Shown piece by piece: positions 3,117 through 25,077 of a stretch of 32,000 nt of DNA (its first letter is position 1; each line of letters begins with the position of its first letter). Position numbers and translations under genes: made by a program. Source of the DNA: Acaryochloris marina S15 (GTDB lineage: Bacteria > Cyanobacteriota > Cyanobacteriia > Thermosynechococcales > Thermosynechococcaceae); assembly GCF_018336915.1 (NCBI RefSeq), contig NZ_CP064923.1, positions 30,001 to 62,000 of the forward strand, given 5' to 3'. The notes below the pieces were generated by a model. The model ran no database searches, was not told the DNA's origin, and saw only the letters and a list, made by a program, of their open reading frames with translations.

Positions 3117-4412
3117 TTAGATAGGACTAATTTCAGCTTCTACAACGACATCTTGCATATCAAAGGCAGAGTTATTGGTGTAATTGGAGTCATACTCAAC
3201 TCCTAATTCATACAAGAATACGACCTGATTGTCATTGAGTTGTAAGGTTGTGTCGTCAGGGCCTTCTAATACTTCAGCGTCTTCTAAGAATGATGTAATA
3301 GACGCTTGTCCTCCGTAAGGCTGGAAAGAGGGTGAAGTATCACCATTGAAAAGTGTAATCACCTGTTTCAATGCAGCACTATTCCACTCATTTAAGTTAG
3401 AAAAATAGCTGAGTGTTGTGTCACCACAACTGTCCGATGCATTATCCAACAGATTTCCTGTAATGGTAAGAGTTGTATTTCGAGGTACTGAGCGAGTATA
3501 GGTTGGATCACCTGGATTAATGGTCATGCTCTCAGGTGCGCTGCTAGGAAAGACAAAATTAACTGTGGCGTTTGTGGGAATAGCAGGACCGCTCACTCCA
3601 CAAGTGACCTGACCTCCAACAACATTGATGCTGATATTAGCATCGTTTGTAAAGGTTACTGTCCCATCAGTAACACTAAAAATTCGGTCGGAAGTTGCGC
3701 CGGAAGATGTTGAAGGAGCAGGGACCGTTGCATAGGTTGGTCGGGTAGCAACGGTCGCATCAGCTGCATAAATTTCATTGGGACCCAAGGCTTTAACCAC
3801 GCTGCCTTGCTTGTAAAGTTTGGCAAGGCTGCCTGTATCGTTAACACATGACAAAAAACTAGATGTGCCCGTACCTGTCCAGCCTGGAGGACAACTGGGT
3901 AATGTTCCTGTGTCTTCTATGCGATCGATGAGTGGTTCATGTTCCCAATTGGCGGGGACATTTGCATCAATATACTCTCCATCACTATCTATGCTAGGAC
4001 CCCAACGGTAAACAACTTTAGGACCTCGCCAAGTGTTATTTGTTGAGGAAGCCAGGTAATAAATGACTGGTACTCCACCTATTTTGGGGTACAACATGAG
4101 TACAGGTGCGGCTCCTGTTGGTAGCCCCGTATTAAAGTCACTCGGCTTAGTGGCAGTCGCTACGTTTTTCTCTAATTTTTCAGCCTGGCGGACTTCTGTG
4201 GCAATGAAGTCTAAAGAACGATCCAGCTCTGTGCGCCTTTCATTCTGAGCATTGGCCGTTTGACTAGATGTCAAAATCGCAACTAGGCCGAATCCACCTA
4301 ATGAAACAACTCCCAAGCTAATAGCAGCAGCAACTAGCAATTCAGGGAGAGTAAATCCTTGTATTTGTGCTGAAGGTTTCACAGTTGTATGAAAGCGAGG
4401 AAGTCTATACAT
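3117..4412 (-). CDS. Type IV minor pilin/pseudopilin, PilW-like N-terminus with about 370 aa of unassigned C-terminal sequence (cluster A, gene 4)
   Basis: 431 aa. Leader MYRLPRFHTTVKPSAQIQ, then G|FTLPELLVAAAISLGVVSLGG (prepilin cleavage/N-methylation motif with Glu5 plus a hydrophobic helix). This is followed by ERRTELDRSLDFIATEVRQA, which resembles the PilW/PulJ class. The rest is Thr/Ser/Asn-rich with paired Cys. Confidence 0.75.
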   Translation of the reverse strand: MYRLPRFHTTVKPSAQIQGFTLPELLVAAAISLGVVSLGGFGLVAILTSSQTANAQNERRTELDRSLDFIATEVRQAEKLEKNVATATKPSDFNTGLPTGAAPVLMLYPKIGGVPVIYYLASSTNNTWRGPKVVYRWGPSIDSDGEYIDANVPANWEHEPLIDRIEDTGTLPSCPPGWTGTGTSSFLSCVNDTGSLAKLYKQGSVVKALGPNEIYAADATVATRPTYATVPAPSTSSGATSDRIFSVTDGTVTFTNDANISINVVGGQVTCGVSGPAIPTNATVNFVFPSSAPESMTINPGDPTYTRSVPRNTTLTITGNLLDNASDSCGDTTLSYFSNLNEWNSAALKQVITLFNGDTSPSFQPYGGQASITSFLEDAEVLEGPDDTTLQLNDNQVVFLYELGVEYDSNYTNNSAFDMQDVVVEAEISPI

Positions 4413-4648
4413 ATGTTCAGTGTAAATAGCAAAAATGAACGTTTTATAGTGCTTGAAAGTAAAATGTCTAATAAATTGAGTTGATTTAGCTAGAAACTTT
4501 GATTTCTGGATAGTGAGAGAGTTGTATATATTAGTTTAGAGGAAAAATATTAGTTTATTTTATCAACTTTAGACATTACATTTCAGTAAATTAGCTTGCC
4601 AATTTACAATCAGTTTTTTTGATTTCGACAAAGCGGTCTGAAACACAC

Positions 4649-5185
4649 TTAAGATGACGTATGGCAGTTAGTGGGTGTGGCTTGCCCTGAAGAAGGAGGA
4701 AATGAGCCTTTAAATTCTCCTACTCGAATGATGCCAATACCTGCAGAAATGGCTAAGCAGCGCATTCCTCCTGATTGGTCAGGATGGTAAAACACAAAGA
4801 CGTTACTCGAAGAAGTAGATCCTTTGGGAGAAAACTCTATTGTGTCTGGGTTTTGAGCAACTAGTGTTACTCCTGATATTTGGTTTCTGCCGTTGACTTG
4901 AGTTAGATCTCGGCTCCCTGTTGGTAAGCAATTAGAGGGGTTAGCTGCAACCGATGAAGATGTGATGGTCAAACTGCAGCGTTGGCTTGTTCGAATTGCT
5001 GAAGCTTGACCTTCTTTTAAAGCGCCTTCTACTTGCGCCAGAACATCTTCTACCCTTTTTTTATTGACCCAACTTAAAAAACTAGGAGTTCCTAGAGCGG
5101 CAAAAATTCCTAAGATTAATACTATGGCTAAGACTTCGGGTAAGGAAAAACCTTGATATTTTTTTGTGGATTGTAGTTGTTTCAT
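4649..5185 (-). CDS. GspH/FimT(FimU)-like minor pilin (cluster A, gene 3)
   Basis: The track ORF is 4649..5317. Met45 (ATG 5185..5183) gives MKQLQSTKKYQ G|FSLPEVLAIVLILGIFAALGTPSFLSW, then KRVEDVLAQVEGALKEGQASAIRTSQRCSLT (GspH/FimT-like). The longer start would overlap the upstream gene by 107 nt. Confidence 0.7.
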   Translation of the reverse strand: MKQLQSTKKYQGFSLPEVLAIVLILGIFAALGTPSFLSWVNKKRVEDVLAQVEGALKEGQASAIRTSQRCSLTITSSSVAANPSNCLPTGSRDLTQVNGRNQISGVTLVAQNPDTIEFSPKGSTSSSNVFVFYHPDQSGGMRCLAISAGIGIIRVGEFKGSFPPSSGQATPTNCHTSS

Positions 5186-5210
5186 GTCCTTAGTTGATAG
5201 AATCCTCAAC

Positions 5211-5759
5211 TCAAGGACATGCCAAGGAAGCATCTGGAATAATTTTGGCTTGAGTGATAGCGATTGGAATAAATTTGCCTTCAATGATCTCGCTGGGGGA
5301 GTAATCGGCTGATACAACTCGATATTCCAATTTCAGAACATTAAATGGCGCTGATGTTGGAAGAGTATGAATGCGAGCTACAGTATAAGCCCGATTGCCA
5401 ATCGCACTGGTTTTATTAGTAAATTGAGGCGAAATATTATCCAGTCCATTAATTTCGTCTAGTAGGCGGTCTGCATATCCTGTAGTTTTTGTTCTTCCTT
5501 GGCAGGCATCTAGAACAATGTTGTAGCTAGAGCCAGCATAATCTAATCGATTGGATTCATACCTCACTCGTTCAAGATCTTCTTGAATCCAAGTGGTTGC
5601 TTCGCTGAGTTCTTTACCTTTAACTCTAAAGACGGTGGCGGCCACGAAAGCTTGCATTGCTGTACCAATGAAACTTGCAATTATTACTAAACCTACTAGT
5701 ACTTCAACTAATGTGAAGCCAGCTTCTCGGGGGTGATTAAAACTAGACTGCCTAGGCAT
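5211..5759 (-). CDS. Small type IV minor pilin/pseudopilin, PilV-like size class (cluster A, gene 2)
   Basis: 182 aa. MPRQSSFNHPREA G|FTLVEVLVGLVIIASFIGTAMQAF shows the classic prepilin leader, Glu5 and hydrophobic helix. Confidence 0.75.
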   Translation of the reverse strand: MPRQSSFNHPREAGFTLVEVLVGLVIIASFIGTAMQAFVAATVFRVKGKELSEATTWIQEDLERVRYESNRLDYAGSSYNIVLDACQGRTKTTGYADRLLDEINGLDNISPQFTNKTSAIGNRAYTVARIHTLPTSAPFNVLKLEYRVVSADYSPSEIIEGKFIPIAITQAKIIPDASLACP

Positions 5760-5922
5760 AGACTTAGCTCACTATCTCTAAAAAATTAGGTTATGGTTCT
5801 TTTAATTCTGTCTAATAATTTGTTTGATGAAGCCTAGAATAATTACATGATAAGCATTTATGCAGAATTAATTACAATCCATTTCTTTGCTAACTCAAAT
5901 GCCCTTAGCTTGCTTTATACTT

Positions 5923-7305
5923 TTAGCTCACGTCTTTCTCTTTAGTTTCCCAGGATTGGATCGGACCAATTTGAGGAGGATATGTGATGGTTATCGGTGC
6001 ACTTCCCCAGGCTCCTCTTGGTGGATCTAATACAGGAGTTCTAACTGCCCCATCGTCTAACCAACGGTTAACCCAAAAAATACCTGTATTTAAGTTGTAA
6101 GAAGTTGGGGCGCTTGGGTTACTTGGAGGTGGGGGCTTGAGACTACAATAATCGTTGTTAGAGATAGGAGGTGGAGCAGCTACTGGCGAAGATCCACTTT
6201 TTTTGTTCATGACATCATAGCTTGGGGCATGGATGAAAATATCACATACTACTGAGCCTTTATCCAAAGTAATATCTTTATCACCGCCTTGGCCGAAAAT
6301 TTTTACTGTGTGAGCATTGCAGTTGGGTCGGCTACCACAAATGTTCCTGATTTTTTCCCCTCTTAAATCAATATCTTCATTGACCCATATCTCAATTATT
6401 TTTAGAGGGCCTGTATCATTATTTACAGAAAAACCACCATCCAAATCGTCGATGACATATCTATATGTCTGTGTATTGTTGGTGGAGTTGCTCTCTTGAG
6501 CTACCTCAAACGGTTGAGGTAAAGTACTAGGCATGCTTGTCAGTAAGTGAAAGTTACCTGGTAAAGGTTGGGCAAGTACGGCTGGTATATTAATACTGGC
6601 ATTAGACAACTCTAACTCCCGTGATTTGTATAGATTAGGGTTAGTTGGAATGGTTGTCACAGAATTGCAGTTACCTAGCACATCCGCTTCGATCTCACCT
6701 GTATTAGCTGAAGTTTGAACCCACAAACCTGCAATGTTAGGCGGAGGTGGATATACAGGGAATTTAACTTCTAGCTGAGAAATGGATTCGCTAGGTTGGC
6801 CTTCGTTGACTCTGCCTTGAACCGTCAAAATCCCAACGTTACTGGTATAGGTGTAATCTACTAATCTATATTCACCTTGAGAAGGTTTACTAGAATCCAC
6901 ATCATGCCAAACAGTCCGTTTGGCATGACTAGCAATTTTGCTATTGTTATCGGATGCACAGCCCAAGAAAGGACTGGCTATGTTGCTTGGGTTATGCCAA
7001 CTGGTTTCCGAGCTACTATCTTGGCAAATATTATTGCTAGCCCAACCTAGTTTGCAGGCAGGCTGCAACGCGAGTTCACGATAGTCGTTGATGAGATTTC
7101 GAATTTCGTTGACCCCGGTTTCTGCGGCGTTGAGGCTTTTGGCGGTATCTTTTTGTGCGATCGCACTCACCTGACTATCTTGCGATCGCAAAAGCATCGT
7201 CAACCCGACTAACAGGATAATCAGTCCCATCCCAATGGCGACAGGCAAAGCAAAGCCTGCTTGTCCCTTTCGGTATTTCAGAGAGTATACAATCCATTTA
7301 TTCAT
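5923..7305 (-). CDS. PilX_N-type pilus-associated protein with Pro-rich C-terminal region (cluster A, gene 1)
   Basis: 460 aa. The N-terminus GQAGFALPVAIGMGLIILLVGLTMLL has no Glu5. It is followed by SLNAAETGVNEI, the pattern I associate with the PilX N-terminal domain (hydrophobic helix, then an A-A-E-x-G motif). Later segments include PPPPNIAG and AAPPPISNNDYCSLKPPPPSNPSAP. Confidence 0.6.
   Translation of the reverse strand: MNKWIVYSLKYRKGQAGFALPVAIGMGLIILLVGLTMLLRSQDSQVSAIAQKDTAKSLNAAETGVNEIRNLINDYRELALQPACKLGWASNNICQDSSSETSWHNPSNIASPFLGCASDNNSKIASHAKRTVWHDVDSSKPSQGEYRLVDYTYTSNVGILTVQGRVNEGQPSESISQLEVKFPVYPPPPNIAGLWVQTSANTGEIEADVLGNCNSVTTIPTNPNLYKSRELELSNASINIPAVLAQPLPGNFHLLTSMPSTLPQPFEVAQESNSTNNTQTYRYVIDDLDGGFSVNNDTGPLKIIEIWVNEDIDLRGEKIRNICGSRPNCNAHTVKIFGQGGDKDITLDKGSVVCDIFIHAPSYDVMNKKSGSSPVAAPPPISNNDYCSLKPPPPSNPSAPTSYNLNTGIFWVNRWLDDGAVRTPVLDPPRGAWGSAPITITYPPQIGPIQSWETKEKDVS
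7157..7189. repeat. HIP1 (GCGATCGC) palindromes: a representative pair among eight copies in the window
   Basis: GCGATCGC occurs at 7157, 7182, 11444, 14761, 19447, 19813, 20545 and 23731 (start positions, read by eye). A random 32-kb sequence would be expected to contain about 0.5 copies of a given palindromic 8-mer. HIP1 enrichment is a hallmark of many cyanobacterial genomes. Confidence 0.8.
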
Positions 7306-7559
7306 GGTTGAGAGTTTTCGCCAACACAGATGTACAGCATTCTATCTAATACAGATCTTGCAGATTGTTATACAAACTATACCGAATATCTCTATAAAAA
7401 TTAAGTATTTCTCCTCACGTCAATCAATGATTTCGAGTATAGCCATTCTAGCAGTTGGCTTCAGTACTGGCAGACAATAATGTGATTTAGATCAGGCCTT
7501 AGCTGTAGTTTTTTGAGATAACAAAATATTTTGTCAACACTCAAATAAAAATAACTTTC

Positions 7560-7575
7560 AGTGATCTAGATCACA
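7560..7575. promoter_or_regulatory. CRP/SyCrp1-type binding-site candidate (aGTGA-N6-TCACA)
   Basis: The sequence is agtgatctagatcaca. The core GTGATCTAGATCAC is a perfect 14-bp palindrome and matches TGTGA-N6-TCACA at 9 of 10 positions. It lies 255 bp upstream of the cluster A start (7305) and 657 bp upstream of the cluster B start (8232). A weaker site, tgtgatttagatcagg, sits at 7481..7496. Confidence 0.5.
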
Positions 7576-8231
7576 CAAGCTAGTGATTTCGATTTCTAAA
7601 CTAGACTCTCAGGAAAAATAATTCATTCACCTTGATATGTCTAGGTTGAAAGGGTTGTGCCTGATTCTGTAAATACCTGATTCAGCCACATTCTACACAC
7701 CAGCATAAGTTTCTCTATCTACTAATTAACCAATATCAATCAGCAGTTTATAAAGATTGCTCGATTCTATAGTTCATGAATGATCTATTGCTAGGGTAAG
7801 AAATCTAGCAATATTTTGTCTGATATTGGTCTTTAGTTTACTTATTCTGTTGTTTCATATCTCTTAGTCGAGATCATTGTTTTCACTGAGATAATATATT
7901 TCTTGATTGTATATTTAAGTGTCTGAAAAGTATGACTTATAGGATTTCCGGGATATCACTGAGGTGACGAAGGAAGATTTTATATAAAGTTATTGTCAGG
8001 GATTGCGAAATCGTAAGGCAATATCTACCGAACCTATTTCTGGAATTGGTGCTTGGGAGCTACTGAAACCAGCATGGAGACTAATCAAGAGTCACTTGTT
8101 TGTGAGATCTTGGTGTGCTTTTGCATGGCGATTTTCTTGACGTGCAAAATATCGATCGACGCCTCAATTAGATGGTGATCAGTTTTGTTTAAGTTGAGTC
8201 CATCCTAGGAATTAAGAATAGAGTTTATCTC

Positions 8232-8810
8232 ATGGGTCAGTACAAGTTGTCTTTGGTACTTTACAACCACTTAATTAAATATTTGCAACCATCAGATCCT
8301 GATGCAGGATTCTCACTTATCGAAGTCATGGTTGTTATTGCACTTACGGCATTTCTAGCTGCTTTTGCCGTACCTGCGATCACTTTTGGTAACAATCCAC
8401 TGCGAGATTCATCTAACCGAATTGCCGCGAGTATGAAGTGGGCTAGGGCTCAAGCAATGGCTTCGACTTCTGCAGTGCGGATTCGCCCGATCTCAAATAC
8501 ACAATTTGTGATGGAGCGAGCGAATAGGTGTACTGAACCGAATGCTGCCAATTGGACCATTATTAGTGACCAAGTCGAAAAAGATGGGCAAATGGTCTAC
8601 GAAGATTTAAGTCTAGATACACCGGCACAGTTGACTACCGTTACGGAAGATGGAGTGGCTGCGACGCCTACAACTTGGGATATCTGTTTTAACACTCGAG
8701 GAATAGCGGATAAAACCCTGGCTCTAACGATGCAGCATACGGGAAATAGTGACCAACGAACCATGACTATTTTTCGCGGAGGCACAGTTGATCTTACTGA
8801 TATCAGTTAA
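8232..8810 (+). CDS. GspH/FimT(FimU)-like minor pilin (cluster B, gene 1)
   Basis: 192 aa. A long leader ends in DPDA G|FSLIEVMVVIALTAFLAAFAVPAITF, followed by RDSSNRIAASMKWARAQAMASTSAVRIRP (GspH/FimT-like). Confidence 0.7.
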   Translation: MGQYKLSLVLYNHLIKYLQPSDPDAGFSLIEVMVVIALTAFLAAFAVPAITFGNNPLRDSSNRIAASMKWARAQAMASTSAVRIRPISNTQFVMERANRCTEPNAANWTIISDQVEKDGQMVYEDLSLDTPAQLTTVTEDGVAATPTTWDICFNTRGIADKTLALTMQHTGNSDQRTMTIFRGGTVDLTDIS

Positions 8811-8856
8811 CGGTAACTCCCTAGAAATGAGAAATGTATCGTAGATCGAGAAATTC

Positions 8857-9297
8857 ATGAAAACTCATAGACCTCACTCCCCCAATCCATTGTTGCTCAG
8901 AATGTTGCGGACTTCACATACTGACGACAAAGGTCTCACCCTGGTAGAAGCGCTGGTTTCATTGCTGATCTTTTTTGTGGCTGCAGCATCTATTGTGCCG
9001 GTTTTTTTGAACTACACAATTTCTACGATTAACAACGAAAGACGCACTGGAGGTATTGCTGTTGCTCAGCAAGTGCTAGATGGACTGCGCCAGGTAGATA
9101 CCACGACTCTACAAGCTACTGGCTCCGACACCCTAACAGATGTTTCTTACTTGGGTAAGACTTATACCCCTATCGTTACTTACTGCCAGAATCCAGCATT
9201 CTGCACCAACCCAGACTCCCGGCACATCACACTTCAGGTATTCCACAATGGCGACGAAATTTACCAAGCTGAAACTGTTTTCACCAACCTCCAATAA
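8857..9297 (+). CDS. PilV-like small minor pilin (cluster B, gene 2)
   Basis: 146 aa. The leader ends in HTDDK G|LTLVEALVSLLIFFVAAASIVPVF, with Leu at +1 and Glu5 present. Confidence 0.7.
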   Translation: MKTHRPHSPNPLLLRMLRTSHTDDKGLTLVEALVSLLIFFVAAASIVPVFLNYTISTINNERRTGGIAVAQQVLDGLRQVDTTTLQATGSDTLTDVSYLGKTYTPIVTYCQNPAFCTNPDSRHITLQVFHNGDEIYQAETVFTNLQ

Positions 9298-10294
9298 AGG
9301 TTTTACGCTGGTTGAATTATTGGTTACAACCCTTATTGCTTCGGTAGTGCTGGTCTCTTCTCTGGGACTGATTACCAACCAACGTAGGCGCTTTGTCTCC
9401 GATCAGGTTCGTGCAGAATCTAATCAAACCTTGCGGGTGGGTTTGGATCTCATAGGTGCTGATATTAAAAATACGGGAGACTTTTTAGAGACGGATATTA
9501 ATTTGCCTGTGGTGTCTGTTATAGATGGTGCAGCAGGAGCACCAGACGAAGTTATTCTGCAGCGCAAACTCATCTCTGACACATTGACCGTTTGTGAAGA
9601 TGTTAATGCTGGTGTCCAAGCAACCATAACCGTTGCTGTGAGACCTGGTGCTGGTGACTGTCCGATCTATTCGGATGGTAATAATGATGATTTGAACGAT
9701 CCACTGACCCTGGCAAGCAGAGAACGCTGTGAACAAGACAATGTTGCGGGATGTGATCGAGTAGCTGCCCTTGCCTCAACTACTTGTGATGACGAATGCG
9801 TAACGGCCTATATATATGACCCTGTAGACCGTGAGGGTGAATTTTTTAGTTACTCATTTGAGGCACCTGATGCGACGCCTAATCCGACTCTGAATCGGAT
9901 ATTTGTTGGGGATGGTGCTGCTTTCGCCAATACCTATCAAGTGGCCAATAGACCCGTGATTTATCTCCTTGAGCAGCGACACTACCGGCTGAATAACAAT
10001 GTATTACAGCTAAGTGTGAATCGGGGTAATTTCGTATCGATAGTCAACCAGGTTGCAGATTTTCAGGTACAAGCACAGTTGACGACCAATCCCAACCCTC
10101 TAGATGCATTTAATTCTACGCCAGGTGGTGATCCACAAACTTACCAGCAGACTAATCCCTTTACATCCTTGCAATTTCTACAGGTAGATTTGCAGTCTGT
10201 CGATCCATCTGAATCTGATTTAACGGAATTGGATGCCGATCAGCGCCAGATTTCTTCTAGATTCTATCCACGTAATGCTAAGTCCGACGATTAA
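9248..10294 (+). CDS. PilW-like minor pilin (cluster B, gene 3)
   Basis: The track ORF starts at 9140. Met37 (ATG 9248) gives MATKFTKLKLFSPTSNK G|FTLVELLVTTLIASVVLVSSLGLI, then RAESNQTLRVGLDLIGADIKNTG (PilW-like). No other ATG, GTG or TTG start lies between 9248 and the cleavage motif. The gene therefore overlaps the previous one by at least 50 nt. Confidence 0.7.
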   Translation: MATKFTKLKLFSPTSNKGFTLVELLVTTLIASVVLVSSLGLITNQRRRFVSDQVRAESNQTLRVGLDLIGADIKNTGDFLETDINLPVVSVIDGAAGAPDEVILQRKLISDTLTVCEDVNAGVQATITVAVRPGAGDCPIYSDGNNDDLNDPLTLASRERCEQDNVAGCDRVAALASTTCDDECVTAYIYDPVDREGEFFSYSFEAPDATPNPTLNRIFVGDGAAFANTYQVANRPVIYLLEQRHYRLNNNVLQLSVNRGNFVSIVNQVADFQVQAQLTTNPNPLDAFNSTPGGDPQTYQQTNPFTSLQFLQVDLQSVDPSESDLTELDADQRQISSRFYPRNAKSDD

Positions 10295-10359: not shown

Positions 10360-12882
10360 ATGAAGTACAATTCCAGCCGCTTTCACCACTCCTTATTTCA
10401 ACTGTTGGTACGTCTTCAGCAGACTCGGCAAAAAGAGGGAGGATATAGCTTAGTCGTTACAGTGGCGATGCTGTTGATTTTGTCTACCCTGCTCATTAGT
10501 GCTGCGGTAGTCAGCAAAGTGGATACAGCGAGTACCAATGCTTCTGCTAGAAGTAGTAATGGCTTTTATGCTGCAGAAGCTGGGCTGAACTTGCGTGCTT
10601 CACAAATCCAAACCCAGTTTCGAGGGTTTCAGCGCCCTACAGGCACGGCTCCCCTAGATGACAATAATGACGGCGAAGTGTGGGATAACTGCGCAGATGG
10701 TAGCAGTGTTGGCACGGGTGATTTTGATTGTCGTCCATTTACGTTTCAAGGCCAAGATGTCTTTACCTACATTCAAGAGGTAGGGCAAGATGACAATTTG
10801 GATGGTGTCCCCGATGATGTGGATGGGGATGGTGTGGCCGATCCAATCTCTATTGTGGTGCCACCTGGAGAGAGGTTTGCAGGCTTAAGTGCTCAAGAAT
10901 ATCGGTATGATTTATGGTCTGTTGCCCAACGAAATGATCTCCCTTCTGCTGTATTGGGTATGACCTTCAAGAGTCGGGTAATTCCCTTATTTCAATTTGC
11001 TGTATTTTATGAAAATGATGCTGATTTTAGTATTCCGCCTGATATGACCATTAATGGTCGGGTGCATACCAATGGCGATCTATATTTAAATTCAGCTTTT
11101 AATCCTCTGAGACTGACTATCAACGGTGATGTGACAACTGCCGGCACCCTTTACAGAGGGAACAAAGATGCTAGAGGTGGACAACAGTGCAGCGGCAACG
11201 TCACGATTCGTAGACAAGATGGTAATCCTCAAGATTTACTGTGCCAGGGCAACGCCATTACATCCTATACCAACACCACAGCGACCCCCTCTAATATCAG
11301 TACTTGGGGAACTGCTATTGATACTGGGATTGATGTATTAGAAGTACCATCACCAGATGCCTATAATCCCACTCCTGGTAGTAGTTATTGGGATGCAGCA
11401 GATCTGCGGATTGTTCTGGAAGTTGATACGAATGGCAACCCTAGCGATCGCAACGGTAATGGTTATGTACTCGAAGTTCGCAATCAGGATGGCACCCCTA
11501 ACGACAATTTATCTGAACGACTGTTGAGAAGTTGCCCAGTGCCAGAAGCAGTATTACAGCCTGATTCAGATGCAAGTCCAACTCAATACCAACAAGGGAA
11601 AACACGTCTGCAATTACTCGATAACAGCAATTTAGGTACAAATGATTCCAACAGAATTGTGACGATTGGTGATCATGTTACTGATTCAGTCAACGTCGAT
11701 GTTGATAGTAATGTCATTAGTAGTCGACCTGCCACTGATGTGCGCCTTAGGAAGAGACTAAACCAAGAAATTAACTTTGACCCTGCGAACCCTCTTAACC
11801 TACCTGCCCTTCCAGGGACAATAACAGTACGCAAGGCTGTTGTCTCTACTTCCAACACCTTCTACAACTATCGGGAAAAACATGGTGTAGCGGGTGGTGA
11901 TGAGGGTCGTTTTATTCGAATGGTAGATGTTGATGTGCAGGCACTGCTCGATTGTTCTCATGATCAGCAATTAATGGGAGCCACACAGCTGAATGATCGT
12001 ACTGATGGGGGTTTAGTGTGGTTTGTCACAGTAGATACCCCTGACCCTAAACCCAATCTCAGTGATGATCCAGATGCTGATAGCGATAATAACTCTCAAG
12101 TTGGCAGTATCTATGGCGTGCGTCTTTATAATGGCGCTTCTCTCAATACTAGTGCTGCAGTTACTGGTGCGCCGACCATTGAGGGATTAACGGTTATCTC
12201 TGATGAAGCAGTCTACGTTCGTGGTGACTATAACCTTCACACAGATCCTGATCCAGCTGTTGATACTTGGAGACCAGCAGCTATTATGGCTGACTCCATC
12301 AATGTTTTATCGAATTCATCTTTGCTCGATGACTCTGATCGCCGGATATTTGATACCACAGGTGGTGATGGACATCCCAACAACATCCAATATCCTCGAG
12401 GAGATAATCGAGGAACGATTAATTGGAATGCTGGTCCTCGCAATTCTACTGAAACTACTATCAATGCTGCCTTTCTCTCAGGAACTGAAATTACTGGGGG
12501 GGCCAACGGTTCAGCAACGCAGCTAAATACTATCCAAAGTGGTGGGGTCAACAACTTCCCGCGATTTCATGAAAATTGGTCTGGTATTCCTTTGAATTAT
12601 CGAGGGTCTTTGGTAAGCCTCAGTGAACCTCGGCGGATCAATTCTGATTTTTGTGGCAGTAGAAATGAAACTACTTGCAATATTTACAGCCCTCCGATCA
12701 GAAATTGGGATTTCGATCAGCGGTTTAATGATGCGGGTGACTTACCCCCACTCACGCCCCGAACGGTTTATTTGCGTCAGGAATTGTTCCAGCGTGATTT
12801 TGACCGCAACTCAAGTCGATCCGTGCAGTTGTTTGCTTCTGCACCTATTCTTCCTTCCATTCAGCCCAATTTTTCTCTGTAA
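10360..12882 (+). CDS. Large PilX_N-type pilus-associated protein with Asp-rich calcium-site-like motif (cluster B, gene 4)
   Basis: 840 aa. The N-terminus KEGGYSLVVTVAMLLILSTLLISAAVV has no Glu5 and is followed by NGFYAAEAGLN (PilX_N pattern). Asp-rich DDNNDGEVWDNCADGSS and DDNLDGVPDDVDGDGVADP occupy residues 100-161 (nt 10657..10842). The rest is long and Asn/Asp/Thr-rich. Confidence 0.6.
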   Translation: MKYNSSRFHHSLFQLLVRLQQTRQKEGGYSLVVTVAMLLILSTLLISAAVVSKVDTASTNASARSSNGFYAAEAGLNLRASQIQTQFRGFQRPTGTAPLDDNNDGEVWDNCADGSSVGTGDFDCRPFTFQGQDVFTYIQEVGQDDNLDGVPDDVDGDGVADPISIVVPPGERFAGLSAQEYRYDLWSVAQRNDLPSAVLGMTFKSRVIPLFQFAVFYENDADFSIPPDMTINGRVHTNGDLYLNSAFNPLRLTINGDVTTAGTLYRGNKDARGGQQCSGNVTIRRQDGNPQDLLCQGNAITSYTNTTATPSNISTWGTAIDTGIDVLEVPSPDAYNPTPGSSYWDAADLRIVLEVDTNGNPSDRNGNGYVLEVRNQDGTPNDNLSERLLRSCPVPEAVLQPDSDASPTQYQQGKTRLQLLDNSNLGTNDSNRIVTIGDHVTDSVNVDVDSNVISSRPATDVRLRKRLNQEINFDPANPLNLPALPGTITVRKAVVSTSNTFYNYREKHGVAGGDEGRFIRMVDVDVQALLDCSHDQQLMGATQLNDRTDGGLVWFVTVDTPDPKPNLSDDPDADSDNNSQVGSIYGVRLYNGASLNTSAAVTGAPTIEGLTVISDEAVYVRGDYNLHTDPDPAVDTWRPAAIMADSINVLSNSSLLDDSDRRIFDTTGGDGHPNNIQYPRGDNRGTINWNAGPRNSTETTINAAFLSGTEITGGANGSATQLNTIQSGGVNNFPRFHENWSGIPLNYRGSLVSLSEPRRINSDFCGSRNETTCNIYSPPIRNWDFDQRFNDAGDLPPLTPRTVYLRQELFQRDFDRNSSRSVQLFASAPILPSIQPNFSL

Positions 12883-13174: not shown

Positions 13175-14194
13175 GTGATCACTTCTGATTCTGCACTGGC
13201 CTTCGACCGGCTCTTACCTATTGTGGTCCTGATCAGTGCTGCAATCCTTGATTTTGCGATTGGTGACCCTTGGGGGTGCCCCCATCCTGTTCAAATGATG
13301 GGTTGGATCATTCAACGCTATACCAAGGGAGCACTTCGGTGGTGGAATGAACCCTGGCAACTGCGGATAGCGGGTATACATCTGACGATCGCACTGGTTT
13401 GTAGCGTGAGTTTGGGGAGCTGGCTGCTGTTCTATGGGTTGGACCGGTGGGCTTGGCCGATTAGCTTGGGAGTAGAAGTTGTTTTGCTCGCCAGTTGTTT
13501 TGCCGGTCGTAGTTTACGTGATGCAACGGTTGACGTTCTTAAACCTCTAGCGAAAGCGGATCTAACCGTGGCGAGATCTCGGCTTCGTCGCTATGTCGGT
13601 AGAGACACCGATACCTTGGCAGAGCAAGATATCTTAAGGGCGTTACTAGAGACCGTTGCCGAGAATACCACGGACGGTGTGATGGCTCCTTTGTTTTATG
13701 CCTTGGTGGGTCTGGCCATTCCTGGGATAGGCCCCGTACCGATGGCGTTGTTCTATAAGGCGGTCAGTACATTAGATTCGATGATTGGGTATCGTACAGC
13801 CCCTTACACTGATCTGGGTTGGTTTAGTGCTCGTCTGGATGATGCGCTGACCTGGTTGCCCTGCCGATTGATGGTACTCACCGTTGGATTGTTATCGGGC
13901 AAACTCAAATCTGTCTGGGTGATTGGTTGGCGAGATGCCCGCAAGGATCCTAGCCCTAACTCGGGCTGGAGTGAATGCGCTTATGCTGCCATCTTGGGCG
14001 TGCAGTTGGGAGGACAAAATTGGTATCGTGGCGTTGCTAAACTAAAGCCGCTGCTGGGCAATCCCCTACAACGGATTACAGCGAAGCATATCGAAGTAGC
14101 GATTCGCCTCACCCGCAACTGCTTTTTGCTGTGGTTGGGATTGGCAGTGGCCTTCACTTGGTTAACGTTGCCAACCCCTGGGTCTTTGGGTTAA
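13175..14194 (+). CDS. cobD: Adenosylcobinamide-phosphate synthase CobD/CbiB
   Basis: 339-aa multi-pass membrane ORF with a GTG start. The N-terminal AILDFAIGDPWGCPHPVQMMGW and later ENTTDGVMAPLFY and PNSGWSE motifs are typical of CbiB/CobD. Confidence 0.9.
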   Translation: MITSDSALAFDRLLPIVVLISAAILDFAIGDPWGCPHPVQMMGWIIQRYTKGALRWWNEPWQLRIAGIHLTIALVCSVSLGSWLLFYGLDRWAWPISLGVEVVLLASCFAGRSLRDATVDVLKPLAKADLTVARSRLRRYVGRDTDTLAEQDILRALLETVAENTTDGVMAPLFYALVGLAIPGIGPVPMALFYKAVSTLDSMIGYRTAPYTDLGWFSARLDDALTWLPCRLMVLTVGLLSGKLKSVWVIGWRDARKDPSPNSGWSECAYAAILGVQLGGQNWYRGVAKLKPLLGNPLQRITAKHIEVAIRLTRNCFLLWLGLAVAFTWLTLPTPGSLG

Positions 14195-16156: not shown

Positions 16157-19048
16157 ATGGTGAGAACTGATCTAAACCTGAGAATGTTAGACATCTCAGT
16201 TGCCAGTTTTAACCAGTCCAATGCAGATCAGCTAAGAAAGATGAGCCAGAAGAGATATGGCTGGCTGTGGAAGATAGCAATTTTGCCATCCCTTGCCATT
16301 GGATTAGTCACGGGGACACCGGATGTTAAAGCAGAAGAGAATATTCTAGTTATTCATTCTTACCATCCAGAACTGTCTTGGACTGACCAAGTTAAACAGG
16401 GCATTGACCAATCTTTTCAAAAACGTCGGCCCGAGGCCAAAATTTTCCATGAATATCTAGATGGCAAACGTCTACCTGCCCTAGAACATTCTCAAAGTTT
16501 CCTAGAGTTGATTCAGGAAAAATATCAAAAGATACCCCTGGATGCCTTAATGGTTTCGGATGATCCGGGTTTACAGTTAATCTTGCAAGTTCGCGATCAG
16601 TATTTTCCCAAAGTGCCCATTGTGTTTTTGGGCATTAATCATGTTCAACCCGAACTCTACAATGTTCCTGGATTAACAGGAGTATTTGAAAAACATAGCG
16701 TCGCTCAGACTGTTCAAGTTGCTAAGCAACTGACGGGGGCAGATGGCTTGATTGTGATTAATGATTCCACGGAAACGGGACAAGCCAATATCAAACGGAT
16801 CAATGAGATCAAACAGCTCCCTAACGTGCCTCAATCCATTGCGATTATCCATGATGTGACACCTGAAGATTTACCTCAAAGGTTATCTGCCTTTCCTTCG
16901 ACATGGCCGGTATTGCCTATGGGGCAGCTCCGTCAAGGTCATGCCAAAGGAAAGTTGATTAACTTTGAGATGGATACCCAAATCCTCAGAGACAAGTTGC
17001 CGAATCCCCTGTTTACTGCCACAGTGATGCGGGTAGGGCCAGGAGCCGTAGGCGGCAAAGTTCTTGAAGGGGGGTTTCATGCTGACCAGGCAGTCCGTTT
17101 GGTTGAACAAATTTTGGATGGGGCTAATCCGACTGATCTGGAGCCGATTGCTGAGTCCAAAAATCTGTGGATGTTCGATGCTAGAGAGCTAAAGCGTTTT
17201 CGGATCAATCCTCGAGATTTACCCGTAGGTAGCATGGTGCTCTATAGTGAGCCCTCCTTTTATGACCAGCATCAGGGTTTGGTATGGGTCGTCTTCGGCG
17301 CTTTTTCCAGTTCTTTAGTGATGATTGCTTTGCTGATAGAGGTATTGCGTCGGCGAGCACAGGTTGAGAAAACCTTGCGAGACAATGAAAAACGCTATAA
17401 AGACCTGGCAGAAGTGGGTGCCAATACCTTCTGGGAATTGGATATAAATCTGAATTTGTCCTATGTCTCTGATCGGAAGGGGTATCAAACATCAGCCATT
17501 TCTTCTCAGGCCATTGGTTTGTCTTTAACGGATGTGTTTGCAGATGAAGAGATGTTTGAGTTTAATACCAAACGTCTAGACACTATTCTGCATTGGCGTC
17601 GACCGATTCAAGACTTTATCTTTTTTGCCAAAGAAGATAATCAAGAGATGCGAATCTTTAAGCTGAATGGTAAGCCTATTGTTGATGATGCCCAGCTATT
17701 TCAGGGGTATCGAGGGATTCAGCGAGATATTACCGAAGAGTATTTCTTAACCAAAAAGATTGCCTATCAGGCGGCCTACGATAGTTTAACGAATCTGTTG
17801 AATCGTTCAGAGTTTGATAATCGGTTACAAGAATCCGTCGATCAGGCTAGAGAAGACAAGACTAAGTTTGTATTGTGCTATCTCGATTTGGACCAATTCA
17901 AGTTGGTCAACGATACCGCTGGCCATATGGTTGGCGATCAGTTGCTCACCGAATTAGCACAACTCCTCAAACAAAAGATTCGCCCCGATGATGTTCTGGG
18001 ACGTTTGGGGGGGGATGAATTTGGATTGCTGATGCAAGACTGCTCTTTGTCAGAAGCCCAAGCCTGTTGTGAAATGTTGGTGACTACAGTCCAGACCTTC
18101 CGCTTTCAGTGGCAAGACAGTCAATTTAGAGTGGGGGTGAGTGTTGGTATTGTGGCCTTCGCAGATGCCAGCTATACCTCAGAAGAACTTTTAAGTCGGG
18201 CAGACCTGGCTTGCTATAAAGCCAAGGATGCTGGCCGGGGACGAGTCTACGTTGCCAATCAAAATGATCGTGAGCTAGACCATTATCAATTGCAAATGGC
18301 TCATATTGCGGATATTCCCCAAGCCATTGAAGAAGACCGATTATTCTTAGTGAAGCAGCCTATCCTGAATATTAATCAGCCTTCTGCTCTATTTCGCCAT
18401 TATGAAATTCTTTTACGGTTGAGAGATGGCAAAAACAATATTATTGGGCCTGGATTGTTTATTCCGGCGGCAGAACGCTATGGCGTGATTGGTCTGATTG
18501 ACAAGTGGGTGTTAGAAAATACCCTCCGCCAGTACTATCAATGTGGCTTAAAAGATGTGGTTGTTTCCATTAATCTGTCAGGGGCCAGCATTAATGATGA
18601 GCGAGCGATGGCGGACGTCATTGCCTTGATCACCCAGTCCAATGTGCCCCCCAGCAATATTTGTATCGAGATTACTGAAACGGCCACCATTGCTCAATTG
18701 GATCAGGCCCTGCGGTTTATTGAATCCCTCAAGAAGATTGGGGTAAAGTTTGCTTTGGATGATTTTGGCAGTGGTGTGTCCTCCCTGAGCTATTTGAAGA
18801 GCTTACCGGTGGACTACCTCAAGATCGATGGCAGTTTGGTGAAGAATATTGCTGTTGTAGAGAGTGATCGCGAAATCATCTACCTAATTAATGAGTTAGC
18901 CCATAAGCGAGGGATGAAAACGATTGCTGAATTTGTGGAAAATGAGCAGATTCTAGAGCAGTTACGGATTATTGGTGTGGACTATGCCCAAGGCTATGGC
19001 ATTGGTAAGCCAGAGCCGTTAGCGGTCACTCAATTAATGGTTAGCTGA
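16157..19048 (+). CDS. Membrane-bound sensory diguanylate cyclase/phosphodiesterase (periplasmic domain-TM-PAS-GGDEF-EAL)
   Basis: 963 aa. Hydrophobic segment WKIAILPSLAIGLV, a roughly 330-aa periplasmic-type domain, then a second TM (LVWVVFGAFSSSLVMIALLI) and a PAS-like region. The GGDEF domain has an RPDD I-site five residues before LGGDEFGLL. The EAL domain shows YEILLRL, DDFGSG, and EFVE...QGY. A later Met (MLDISV or MSQKRYG) could be the true start. Confidence 0.9.
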   Translation: MVRTDLNLRMLDISVASFNQSNADQLRKMSQKRYGWLWKIAILPSLAIGLVTGTPDVKAEENILVIHSYHPELSWTDQVKQGIDQSFQKRRPEAKIFHEYLDGKRLPALEHSQSFLELIQEKYQKIPLDALMVSDDPGLQLILQVRDQYFPKVPIVFLGINHVQPELYNVPGLTGVFEKHSVAQTVQVAKQLTGADGLIVINDSTETGQANIKRINEIKQLPNVPQSIAIIHDVTPEDLPQRLSAFPSTWPVLPMGQLRQGHAKGKLINFEMDTQILRDKLPNPLFTATVMRVGPGAVGGKVLEGGFHADQAVRLVEQILDGANPTDLEPIAESKNLWMFDARELKRFRINPRDLPVGSMVLYSEPSFYDQHQGLVWVVFGAFSSSLVMIALLIEVLRRRAQVEKTLRDNEKRYKDLAEVGANTFWELDINLNLSYVSDRKGYQTSAISSQAIGLSLTDVFADEEMFEFNTKRLDTILHWRRPIQDFIFFAKEDNQEMRIFKLNGKPIVDDAQLFQGYRGIQRDITEEYFLTKKIAYQAAYDSLTNLLNRSEFDNRLQESVDQAREDKTKFVLCYLDLDQFKLVNDTAGHMVGDQLLTELAQLLKQKIRPDDVLGRLGGDEFGLLMQDCSLSEAQACCEMLVTTVQTFRFQWQDSQFRVGVSVGIVAFADASYTSEELLSRADLACYKAKDAGRGRVYVANQNDRELDHYQLQMAHIADIPQAIEEDRLFLVKQPILNINQPSALFRHYEILLRLRDGKNNIIGPGLFIPAAERYGVIGLIDKWVLENTLRQYYQCGLKDVVVSINLSGASINDERAMADVIALITQSNVPPSNICIEITETATIAQLDQALRFIESLKKIGVKFALDDFGSGVSSLSYLKSLPVDYLKIDGSLVKNIAVVESDREIIYLINELAHKRGMKTIAEFVENEQILEQLRIIGVDYAQGYGIGKPEPLAVTQLMVS

Positions 19049-22885: not shown

Positions 22886-23563
22886 ATGTCTAACGTCTCT
22901 GAACTCATTCAAGAGATGCAGACGTACTATCACCATCGTGCTGCTGATTATGATGTCTCGATGGGCTATGACCAGCCTGAAGTGGTTGCTCAACTAGCCG
23001 ATGTCATTGAGCATCTCAGACAGTTGGTAACGGGTAAACGGGTGTTAGAGATAGCCTGTGGCCCTTGTTTCTGGACGGAACAAATTTATGATTGCACTCA
23101 TTCTTTTCTAGCAACCGATTACAACCAAAGTACCTTAGAGCAGGCAGCCCTTAAGCAACTCCCCGCTCACAAAGTCCAGCTCCAGCAGGCTAATGCCTAT
23201 CAGCTCTCCGATCTTCCTCACGATTTTGATGTTGTCCTAGCGATAGATTGGTTGGCTCATGTTCCAATGTCAAGAATGCGTGATTTTCTGCATGACCTGC
23301 ATCTGCATATGAAGGGACAAGTGGTGTTTTGTGATCAGCTCCCTGGATCCCAATCTTGGACAGGAAAATTTGATTCTGAAGGAAATCATTTACAGTTACG
23401 CCATTTGAAGAATGATGCATCCTATACCGTGATCAAGCATTTCTTCTCAGATACAGAAATCGCAAATATTTTTTCTGATTTTCCAGTGAATGTTGAGATA
23501 GATCGTTATCCTGATGTACAAAGAATAGTGTTGTCTTATTCGTTAAACTCTACGACTATTTAG
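22886..23563 (+). CDS. Class I SAM-dependent methyltransferase
   Basis: 225 aa. Motif I-like VLEIACGPCFWT, with an acidic residue after beta-2 (LATDYN). The substrate is unknown. Confidence 0.65.
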   Translation: MSNVSELIQEMQTYYHHRAADYDVSMGYDQPEVVAQLADVIEHLRQLVTGKRVLEIACGPCFWTEQIYDCTHSFLATDYNQSTLEQAALKQLPAHKVQLQQANAYQLSDLPHDFDVVLAIDWLAHVPMSRMRDFLHDLHLHMKGQVVFCDQLPGSQSWTGKFDSEGNHLQLRHLKNDASYTVIKHFFSDTEIANIFSDFPVNVEIDRYPDVQRIVLSYSLNSTTI

Positions 23564-24249
23564 TAATAAGTCTAGTAGACGCTAAGAGAATAATGATCAT
23601 CGGAAGTAGAGCTTGGCAGTCGCCATTGCTAAAATTCTTAGATTATTTACAGCCTGATTTGGATATCGGCTATCTTCGATTTCACCCTGATTAAGAGGGA
23701 GAGTAGGAATAGTGTGTGTAGATTACTTATGCGATCGCACTACTATGCCTTACATGATGGATATCAATCTTGAATGATTTATGAATTATTTATATTTTTA
23801 GAATATTTTTATTCTTAAATATAAAAAACTGAATCTTGCATTCTATGATCCCAAAATTCAGTGGATTAGGCTACTCTAGCAAGCTAAGTCAATAATTTAA
23901 CTCATAAAAAAAATATAAAATAATATTTATTAAATTAACCAGATACTTTTAAAAGTATTAATAGATACAAAAAAATAGTAATTAGAGTTACAAACTTTTT
24001 GAGCTGTTAGTCTTACTATATTCAAAGGTATAGTTTTCCCGCTAACTGTAATTTAATACTGGCCTGCATAATCTTTTAAAACTGGAGATTAACGTATTCT
24101 TAATCCTATTTTTAGGAAATATTTTTGCATGCAAATTAGTTAACTATATTTAGTTTTATTGAATGGTTGCTCTTAGGTTCTACAGAAATTTTATTTCAAT
24201 GAAATTTTAGTCAAGCAGCTAATAAATTATTTTTTTCGATTCAAACACC

Positions 24250-25077
24250 ATGAAAATCAAACATATACTGAATACAATTGATCGACATTTTCATCCCTCT
24301 CATATCTATGCACTTCAGCCAGATCATGATCTTCTGAGAGAGAATCGACCCTATAGAGAAGCCAATGATATTGTTCTTTTGTCTTATCCAAGATCTGGGA
24401 ATACATGGCTGAGGCGGCTGCTGGCTAACTCGATTTTAGAAGCTCAACAATACCCATCTTCTATCCAATCCGATATCCCTTTTGAAACCGTTGTCCCATC
24501 AATTTATACGCAAAGTATCAAACCACCCTGTCTGCATCATTATGATGATATCTGTCACCGCATTGTTAAAAGCCATGAGCATAGGGATGCAAAGAAACAT
24601 AAGACGGTTTATGCATTTCGTAACCCTGTAGATACATTGGTCTCTTGGCATCACTTCGTCGCCAATTCTCCAAGCCTCTTACAACAATTTCCTTGAGTGT
24701 CCGATCTTTCCATCGATGAGTTTTGCTTGAATGCAGTAGAGGGCTGGGCCAAGCATATTCAACAAACTCGTCACTATAAGGACATCTTGTTAGTGGAATA
24801 CGAAAACTTATTTCAGCATCCTCATCAGATGCTGGCCAATATTTTGGATTTTTGCAGTATTCCCCGCAGTAATATTGATCTAGATCAGATCATTGAGAAC
24901 CAATCGATCTGTAAGCTAAAGCCGGTGACTCAATCCCAAGAACTCAGAAAAGGCGGGGTTGGACATGGCGAAAATGAATTACGGCCTGACACCGTGACTG
25001 AGCTACGTCAGTATCAACAAATGCTCAACATGACCTGGAAATCTGACATGGAACGTAGTCTGACGACTGCAATGTAA
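24250..25077 (+). pseudogene. Sulfotransferase-family gene interrupted by a single in-frame TGA (24694..24696)
   Basis: ORFs 24250..24696 and 24697..25077 are in the same frame, separated only by the TGA (caa ttt cct TGA gtg tcc). The first half carries the 5'-PSB loop YPRSGNTWLRRLL (nt 24388..24408). The second half carries the RKGGVGHGENEL 3'-PB-like motif. Joined, they give about 275 aa, a normal sulfotransferase length. Confidence 0.6.

Follow-up and report, generated by a model that had tools for sequence, protein, structure and literature searches.

A giant PilX_EPS/PilA12-type minor pilin of Acaryochloris marina S15 as a probable pilus-tip subunit with a PilY1-type module in cis

To our knowledge, cyanobacteria generally have no PilY1/PilC, and the means by which their pili are capped, adhere and sense surfaces are under active study. 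A locus of Acaryochloris marina S15 bears on this question. The window analysed here comprises 32,000 nucleotides (NZ_CP064923.1, positions 30,001 to 62,000), and all coordinates below refer to it. A sequence-only reading had proposed that an open reading frame (ORF) on the plus strand encodes an 840-aa protein with a PilX_N-type anchor and an Asp-rich calcium-binding segment, standing in for PilY1. The ORF was found exactly at 10360..12882 (+), with the length claimed and an ATG start. The gene probably encodes the apical minor pilin (the PilX/GspK position) of a type IV pilus priming complex, of the PilX_EPS subfamily and with its distal module in cis. Schuergers et al. (bioRxiv 2026) have already proposed that this family replaces PilY1.

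The N-terminus of the 840-aa protein has the features of a prepilin. The stretches GGYSLVV...AAVV and NGFYAAEAGLN occupy aa 27-51 and aa 67-77, respectively, and prepilin-peptidase cleavage is predicted to occur, probably after Gly28. The residue at position +5 is Val (G28|YSLVV), and there is no Glu5. Glutamate was found at +5 in none of the 271 homologues with a recognisable site, which carry V, I, L, T, S, A, F or M instead. The lack of Glu5 would confine the protein to the very tip of the filament, as we propose. The PilX_N-type anchor stood in that the alignment covers the full Pfam profile (aa 27-77) and Glu5 is absent, but the score was below the Pfam threshold; the profile was matched by 25 of 44 aligned family members (best E 1e-4). 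No Pfam family was matched by the 840-aa protein at E <= 0.1. The mature protein is very acidic (isoelectric point 4.4, net charge -42), with 8 Lys; Asp makes up 9.4% of the 840-aa protein.

The approximately 760 residues that follow the anchor had been described as unassignable. They proved to belong to a known family, PilX_EPS/PilA12/HpsA-like. Slr2018 of Synechocystis PCC 6803 was reached through a Snowella homologue as a stepping stone and was then compared directly. BLASTP aligned aa 28-359 with Slr2018 26-344 (34% identity, E 2e-44) and aa 546-816 with Slr2018 586-799 (36% identity, E 3e-39). The Synechocystis locus has the order PilA9-PilA10-PilA11-Slr2018, and the three window proteins encoded upstream of the 840-aa gene matched PilA9 (4e-9), PilA10 (6e-14) and PilA11 (1e-29) in the same gene order. 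The NCBIfam HpsA model NF038301 matched the 840-aa protein with an E of 6e-15 and 54 bits, not reaching the equivalog cutoff of 400 bits, and matched all 44 aligned family members (best E 1.4e-26). The 840-aa protein is a member of the PilX_EPS/PilA12 family on the grounds of its Slr2018 homology, HpsA-related solenoid, lack of Glu5 and cassette context; it is an orthologue-type relative of PilA12 (Slr2018) and a distant relative of HpsA. Slr2018 itself was proposed to be a PilX-like pilin of unusual size with a hydrophobic residue at +5 (Oeser et al. 2020/21, 10.1101/2020.12.15.422378), and was later classed as PilX_EPS and "homologous to HpsA" (Schuergers et al. bioRxiv 2026, 10.64898/2026.02.12.705559).

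The plus-strand set of the window consists of four genes:

8232..8810 (+), FimT/GspH-like minor pilin, first of the set, PilA9 counterpart (Pfam GspH 8.6e-8, N_methyl 5.8e-7, TIGR01708 gspH 6.8e-10)
8857..9297 (+), PilV-like minor pilin, PilA10 counterpart (N_methyl motif; TIGR02523 PilV 9e-5)
9248..10294 (+), PilW/GspJ/HpsC-like minor pilin, PilA11 counterpart (N_methyl at aa 51-73 of the long ORF; HpsC 2e-7)
10360..12882 (+), 840-aa minor pilin of PilX_EPS/PilA12 type, probably at the tip (Slr2018 homology, HpsA model, AlphaFold2 model, ComZ fold match)

The mechanical start of the PilW-like ORF is at 9140, and its probable start is Met37 at 9248. As cobD (13175-14194) is the next gene downstream, the 840-aa gene closes the set, the place that had been claimed for it. 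No PilY1/PilC homologue or domain (Pfam Neisseria_PilC) was detected among the window ORFs scanned, in agreement with the claim that the 840-aa gene takes the usual place of pilY1.

The function of the family has been approached experimentally in relatives. The EPS set (EPS, extracellular polysaccharide) was shown to prime long, adhesive motility pili, a pilA9-12 deletion mutant made short competence-type pili only, and phototaxis was lost when tlr0680-82, the predicted EPS/motility locus of Thermosynechococcus vulcanus, was deleted (10.64898/2026.02.12.705559). The same preprint shows that the pilin fold of every cyanobacterial PilX homologue contains an inserted beta-solenoid, like that of ComZ; the solenoid of PilX_EPS was proposed as a PilY1 plug, and PilX_EPS was suggested to be an adhesin for an EPS track.

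Structure prediction and a Foldseek search, the route that the sequence-only reading had pointed to for the unassigned part, gave a predicted pilin domain, a beta-rich module and a C-terminal strand, together with a match to ComZ. The AlphaFold2 (AF2) model, built on a 44-sequence alignment, had a mean predicted local distance difference test (pLDDT) score of 76.8 and a predicted template modelling score of 0.78. It placed a helix at aa 29-87, a loop with a short helix at 108-113, and strands at 125-129, 132-141, 163-166, 177-191 and 194-209. These pilin strands were followed by a beta-rich region from 213 to about 790 and then by one long last strand, 801-813. Low confidence was confined to segments 143-159, 470-484, 569-579, 663-686 and 817-840. 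The parts of the protein are as follows:

10360..10620 (+), leader (aa 1-28) and hydrophobic alpha1 helix (aa 29-87, also in the AF2 model)
10996..12729 (+), predicted beta-rich, solenoid-type insertion with subdomains, ~580 aa (213-790), modelled by AF2 with many short strands at regular intervals
11545..11826 (+), extra segment of ~95 aa (396-489), seen in the gap pattern of the alignment, present in long cyanobacterial homologues and absent from the ~600-aa Thermus type
12760..12798 (+), conserved C-terminal beta-strand, aa 801-813, within LPPLTPRTVYLRQELF (AF2 strand; family conservation)

The beta-rich module carries the conserved motifs SR(L/V)(V/I)P(L/M)FQF and N(Y/F)PR(F/L)HExW. The extra segment within it shows little conservation, is modelled in part with low confidence, and may be what the 2026 preprint calls the "additional domains of unknown function" of PilX_EPS.

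Foldseek against the PDB returned ComZ of Thermus thermophilus as the sole significant match (6qvi_B, E 1.1e-6, probability 0.98). ComZ has a GspK-like pilin fold with a ~380-aa triangular beta-solenoid between its penultimate and last strands; it binds DNA and was argued on steric grounds to sit at the pilus tip (PMC6561018). The order of elements in our model and the ComZ match would be compatible with a solenoid between the penultimate and the C-terminal strand; the global similarity was low. The match to a DNA-binding pilin at a proposed tip location would also suit a DNA receptor of the ComZ kind at the tip of a competence pilus, a role that we consider very unlikely here. ComZ binds DNA through lysines, whereas the mature 840-aa protein has a net charge of -42 and 8 Lys. 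No sequence similarity to ComZ was detected in the PDB at E <= 10, either with the single sequence or with the 44-sequence family profile. By sequence, its homologue is PilA12, which belongs to the motility/EPS set, and not a PilX of the competence set, and a second pilin set in the window, with a 460-aa PilX-like protein, is the more natural competence candidate. Thermus, moreover, has comZ plus a separate homologue of the 840-aa protein in a four-gene cassette of its own.

The HpsA relationship and the solenoid bear on a further alternative, namely a component of an HpsA-like polysaccharide-secretion pseudopilus, or a tip-borne beta-helix enzyme (lyase or hydrolase) with extracellular polysaccharide as its substrate, in place of an adhesin or plug. 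Besides the homology to the HpsA model, HpsA is described as indispensable in Nostoc for motility and for the secretion of hormogonium polysaccharide (work cited in 10.64898/2026.02.12.705559), and beta-solenoids are common among polysaccharide-active enzymes. Two family members gave weak matches to the K1-lyase Rider domain (E 0.01), one gave a weak match to the gp37 tail-fibre trimerisation region, and invariant polar residues within the solenoid (for example, H236, N238, R505, E506, D615, H737 and E738) leave room for an enzyme role. However, the HpsA score of 54 bits is far from the 400-bit cutoff, and no significant match to an enzyme family or enzyme structure was obtained in Pfam, Foldseek against the PDB or Foldseek against viral structures (BFVD), the last of which gave no significant match at all. 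No glycosyltransferase or other polysaccharide-synthesis domain was found in the scanned ORFs beside the pilin sets, and the homologues of Thermus, Binatia and Bdellovibrionota sit in plain minor-pilin cassettes. Such a role is therefore unlikely on balance.

The tip-pilin reading draws most directly on the C-terminal strand. This strand falls in one of the best-conserved stretches of the family, with invariant residues around it (L795, P796, P797, P800, Q807, E808 and F810). The motif P[LI][ST]PRxVxL[RK]QExF was present in 214 of 301 homologues, at a median of 8 residues from the C-terminus. In the tip pilins PilK/PilX, either PilC/PilY1 supplies the last strand of the sheet in trans, with its C-terminal ~10 residues, or a PilK homologue (GspK, CpaL, ComGG) does so in cis, and addition of this strand licenses assembly of the tip complex (PMC13533445, PNAS 2026). 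Where a tip pilin has no PilC/PilY1 partner, it carries the strand itself, preceded by a large insertion (PMC13533445). By analogy, strand 801-813 is predicted from the model to fold back onto the pilin sheet as an in-cis "licensing" strand. Given the missing Glu5, the large insertion and the conserved terminal strand, the protein is best read as a PilX with a PilY1-type module fused in cis. The idea of a PilY1 substitute therefore survived in its architecture, in which pilin domain, beta-rich module and C-terminal strand match the in-cis tip pilins, but lost calcium as its core.

We infer the following mechanism. The N-terminal helix without Glu5 would anchor the 840-aa protein in the inner membrane, and its own C-terminal strand (aa 801-813) would complete the small pilin beta-sheet. 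The completed sheet would allow docking of the PilV- and PilW-like proteins encoded just upstream, and the FimT-like adaptor would join this tip complex to the major pilin. The ~580-aa beta-rich module, lying between the sheet and the last strand, would project from the tip and do in cis what the proteobacterial PilY1/PilC does in trans, serving as tip plug and adhesin, perhaps with the cell's own extracellular polysaccharide as ligand. A pilus with such a tip complex would most likely be of the long, adhesive, motility type rather than a competence pilus.

Several points weigh against this reading. The PilX_N match is sub-threshold (E 0.19; 12.2 bits against a cutoff of 25.5). The structural alignment with ComZ has 11% identity and low global template modelling scores of 0.18 and 0.26, and the insertion point and the pairing of strand 801-813 are read from the order of predicted secondary-structure elements, the insertion topology also from the ComZ match. 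Synechocystis mutants without pilA9-slr2019 keep assembling pili (10.1101/2020.12.15.422378), so that the gene set is dispensable for piliation as such. The EPS-adhesin role is put forward only as a hypothesis in 10.64898/2026.02.12.705559. A profile search for a link to tlr0680-82 returned no named T. elongatus or T. vulcanus protein among the top 120 matches; a protein from the metagenome-assembled genome "Thermosynechococcus sp. WC_1" had its closest named relative in Altericista. Finally, the experimentally studied relatives are all <=50% identical to the 840-aa protein.

Calcium binding had been placed at the core of the PilY1 analogy, on the basis of two Asp-rich stretches. These are real and in the place claimed for them, the second ending at aa 162, one residue past the claimed 161:

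10657..10701 (+), DxDxDG motif 1, DDNNDGEVWDNCADG, aa 100-114, in the alpha-beta loop beside the invariant Cys111 and the near-invariant Cys124
10789..10845 (+), tandem DxDxDG motifs 2 and 3, DDNLDGVPDDVDGDGVADP, aa 144-162, an insertion between pilin-sheet strands 132-141 and 163-166

In 20,000 composition-preserving shuffles, Dx[DN]xDG, which occurs three times (aa 100, 144 and 153), was expected 0.10 times (P = 1.5e-4), and Dx[DN]xDGxx[DE], which occurs twice, 0.013 times (P = 5e-5). The motifs are thus non-random and not a by-product of the Asp content. A census was made in 192 homologues of at least 550 aa. Motif 1 was present in 16 and all three motifs in 10, the carriers all being the closest, Acaryochloris-type proteins; the motifs were missing from the other 176, including Slr2018 and the Thermus proteins. 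Seven of the 44 aligned sequences share the second stretch (aa 142-157) as an insertion, and a few more have the first. Among carriers, the D/N/D/G ligand positions are fixed and the x positions vary (DDNLDGVPDDVD, DANVDGIPDDID, DTNADGIPDDDD), a pattern that would be expected of metal-binding loops.

The thrombospondin type 3/EF-like label was borne out by the DxDxDG spacing and the conserved ligands, but not by profiles. No match to Pfam TSP_3 or EF-hand was obtained at E <= 10, with either the entire protein or the segment by itself as query, and the label accordingly comes down to a regular-expression motif alone. The sole Pfam result for the isolated segment was a non-significant FG-GAP match (E 1.3), and a PDB sequence search with the segment yielded nothing usable.

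PilY1 of Pseudomonas reportedly has a calcium switch at an EF-hand-like site, and a calcium-gated analogue, in which the binding and release of Ca2+ at aa 100-162 tunes extension and retraction or mechanosensing, would account for three motifs that depart from composition at P about 1e-4, for ligand positions conserved among clade carriers and for the very acidic protein. The equivalent tip pseudopilin also has calcium sites: GspK has two, and XcpX has a third that is restricted to one clade and has a dissociation constant of 26 uM (PMC6211770). Nonetheless, gating of this kind seems rather unlikely. The motifs lie in pilin-domain loops and none is in the distal module, the loop region at aa 143-159 has a pLDDT of <50 in the AF2 model, and the GspK/XcpX sites are regarded as structural, not regulatory. 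Absent from most homologues, the motifs cannot explain how the family works, and calcium binding at a lineage-specific segment had to be given up as the core of the analogy. One lineage has gained the three DxDxDG loops in its pilin domain, where they probably form a structural Ca2+ site that would stiffen them; they are not the basis of PilY1 substitution. The loops appear to be unreported, calcium being unmentioned in the 2026 preprint.

A search of 5.8 billion proteins with the 840-aa protein gave 260 matches. The full-length matches were cyanobacterial (Acaryochloris, Aliterella, Lyngbya, Thermosynechococcaceae), and ~600-aa versions were found in Thermus and other phyla; many homologues are annotated at source as "Tfp pilus assembly protein PilX" or "hypothetical". 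Among GTDB species representatives, 399 encoding loci were identified, including those of Thermus, Meiothermus, Binatia, Bdellovibrionota, Deltaproteobacteria and Methylomirabilota. When 1.84 billion representatives at 50% identity were searched exhaustively with a profile, 4,311 relatives were found at E <= 1e-3, with 1,239 at E <= 1e-30. Of the 79 related loci, most of those with sufficient sequence upstream had two to three prepilin-type ORFs directly upstream on the same strand, and similar cassettes with upstream prepilin genes were present in Binatia and Bdellovibrionota (non-cyanobacterial loci L029-L079).

In Thermus, the cassette encodes a FimT-like protein of 164 aa, a PilV-like protein of 123 aa, a PilW-like protein of 299 aa and a giant PilX of 605 aa; that of Thermus thalpophilus (L039:6199-9809, with the giant PilX at 7992-9809) lies apart from the comZ locus. 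BLASTP of the window proteins against the Thermus cassette gave E values of 3e-10 (FimT-like), 1.8e-20 (PilV-like), 4e-31 (PilW-like) and 5e-86 plus 2e-65 (PilX). The window proteins are nearer to their Thermus counterparts than to those of Synechocystis (for the 840-aa PilX, 44% identity compared with 34%). The possibility that the Thermus homologue is ComZ itself was rejected, as the family profile, T. thermophilus sequences included, misses the ComZ PDB chain and the homologue has its separate four-gene cassette. Given this cassette and its closeness to the window proteins, Thermus may hold a second priming set, so far uncharacterised, that might serve the narrow PilA5 pilus. The spread of the four-gene cassette outside the cyanobacteria, including the non-ComZ Thermus set, appears to be new relative to the cited papers; the 2026 cyanobacterial study did not address the reach of the family or cassette beyond cyanobacteria.

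Two extensions are put forward tentatively and together, as a possibility that we would not favour at present: that calcium loops gained in the pilin domain by the Acaryochloris-type clade make priming-complex assembly or tip stability dependent on calcium, and that FimT-PilV-PilW-giant-PilX is an ancient motility/adhesion pilus module. The former, if true, would be convergent with the PilY1 calcium switch and with the clade-specific third calcium site of XcpX. The latter would make the module common to cyanobacteria, Thermus, Binatia and Bdellovibrionota and its pilus distinct from the ComZ-type competence pilus; the uncharacterised 605-aa Thermus homologue would then prime the narrow PilA5 twitching pilus.

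The window is syntenic with Acaryochloris marina MBIC11017, with both pilin sets, cobD and mltA in identical order, and the A. marina homologue of the 840-aa protein is 71% identical to it. The second, divergent minor-pilin set lies at 3117-7305 on the minus strand:

5923-7305 (-), 460-aa PilX-like protein
5211-5759 (-), 182-aa pilin
4649-5317 (-), 222-aa GspH/ComGD-like pilin
3117-4412 (-), 431-aa GspJ/HpsC-like pilin

The 460-aa and 840-aa proteins have the N-terminal ~70 aa alone in common (BLASTP E 4e-4; hhalign probability 89.6%). The 460-aa protein is only ~45% identical to its A. marina counterpart, compared with 71% for the 840-aa protein. It gave no family match and no PDB sequence match, a profile search included, and its single-sequence AF2 model (pLDDT 39.6) was unusable. 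The minus-strand set may be the competence-type (PilX_Com) set, an assignment that is a guess.

Between the divergent sets, in the intergenic region 7306-8231, lies a CRP-type palindrome, AGTGATCTAGATCACA, at 7560-7575. It was the sole match in the 32 kb at <=1 mismatch. The same palindrome was found at the equivalent site in four Acaryochloris loci (L001:5198; L004:5196, a perfect TGTGATCTAGATCACA; L009:5270; L017:5207) and upstream of Snowella operons (L033:5083, L035:5024), and a CRP-family gene adjoins the Synechocystis pilA operon (L080:1049-1774). Control of pilA9-slr2018 by SyCRP1 and cyclic AMP is known, and the palindrome, as a sequence motif, would fit such control. Promoter and terminator scans were at chance level.

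Approximately 3 kb past the pilin locus, at 16157-19048 (+), a 963-aa protein with GGDEF and EAL domains (cyclic di-GMP turnover) and a weak PAS match is encoded. A. marina has a like arrangement, with a 993-aa counterpart ORF at L001:13720-16701. Further downstream, a sulfotransferase (Pfam Sulfotransfer_1) is divided between two abutting ORFs, 24250-24696 and 24697-25077 (+), which hold the N- and C-terminal halves of the domain; it is probably a pseudogene or interrupted by an in-frame stop. It lies within 23001-25000, where the GC content of the window is lowest (0.36-0.38, compared with about 0.45-0.50 elsewhere).

The locus adds a well-conserved Acaryochloris-lineage member to the PilX_EPS/PilA12 family, and the findings on the 840-aa protein do not overturn current thinking. 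Its conserved C-terminal strand offers a direct test bed for the in-cis licensing-strand model, and the clade-restricted DxDxDG loops provide a natural presence/absence series for calcium at the pilus tip.

Among the closest known systems is Slr2018/PilA12, with the same operon place after PilA9, PilA10 and PilA11 or their counterparts, a hydrophobic +5 residue and a PilX_N-type helix. Its size is 773-799 aa compared with 840 aa, and it has a CRP-family gene beside the operon, with a CRP-type site lying upstream in the window. It differs in being only 34-36% identical, with central regions that BLASTP did not align, in having none of the three DxDxDG motifs, and in a net charge of -9 compared with -42. 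HpsA of Nostoc punctiforme (NF038301) shares a significant partial profile match and has pseudopilin-like genes alongside (HpsB-D); its profile, however, has 1503 positions, and no hps glycosyltransferase context was seen in the window ORFs scanned. ComZ (PDB 6QVI) resembles the model of the 840-aa protein in its pilin fold, in a large beta-rich insertion that would lie before the last strand here too, and in having no predicted role in the filament body, but has no detectable sequence similarity and binds DNA by lysines, unlike this strongly acidic protein. GspK/XcpX and CpaL (Tad) are likewise apical subunits without Glu5, with a large insertion in the pilin fold and the C-terminal strand in cis (PMC13533445), and the calcium sites of GspK/XcpX, one of them clade-restricted (PMC6211770), would have a counterpart in the DxDxDG loops described here. 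GspK differs in that its insertion is alpha-helical and mid-sheet, and the GspK model gave a weak match in two of 44 family members (E 0.0015) and none for the 840-aa protein. PilY1/PilC of Pseudomonas and Neisseria are comparable as proposed tip plugs and adhesins that supply the last strand of the PilX/PilK sheet, in a possible calcium site, and in their operon place after pilW/pilX. They are non-homologous, no PilY1/PilC beta-propeller or vWA domain being detected in the 840-aa protein, and PilY1/PilC is a separate protein that docks in trans, whereas the corresponding module here would be fused in cis to the PilX pilin.

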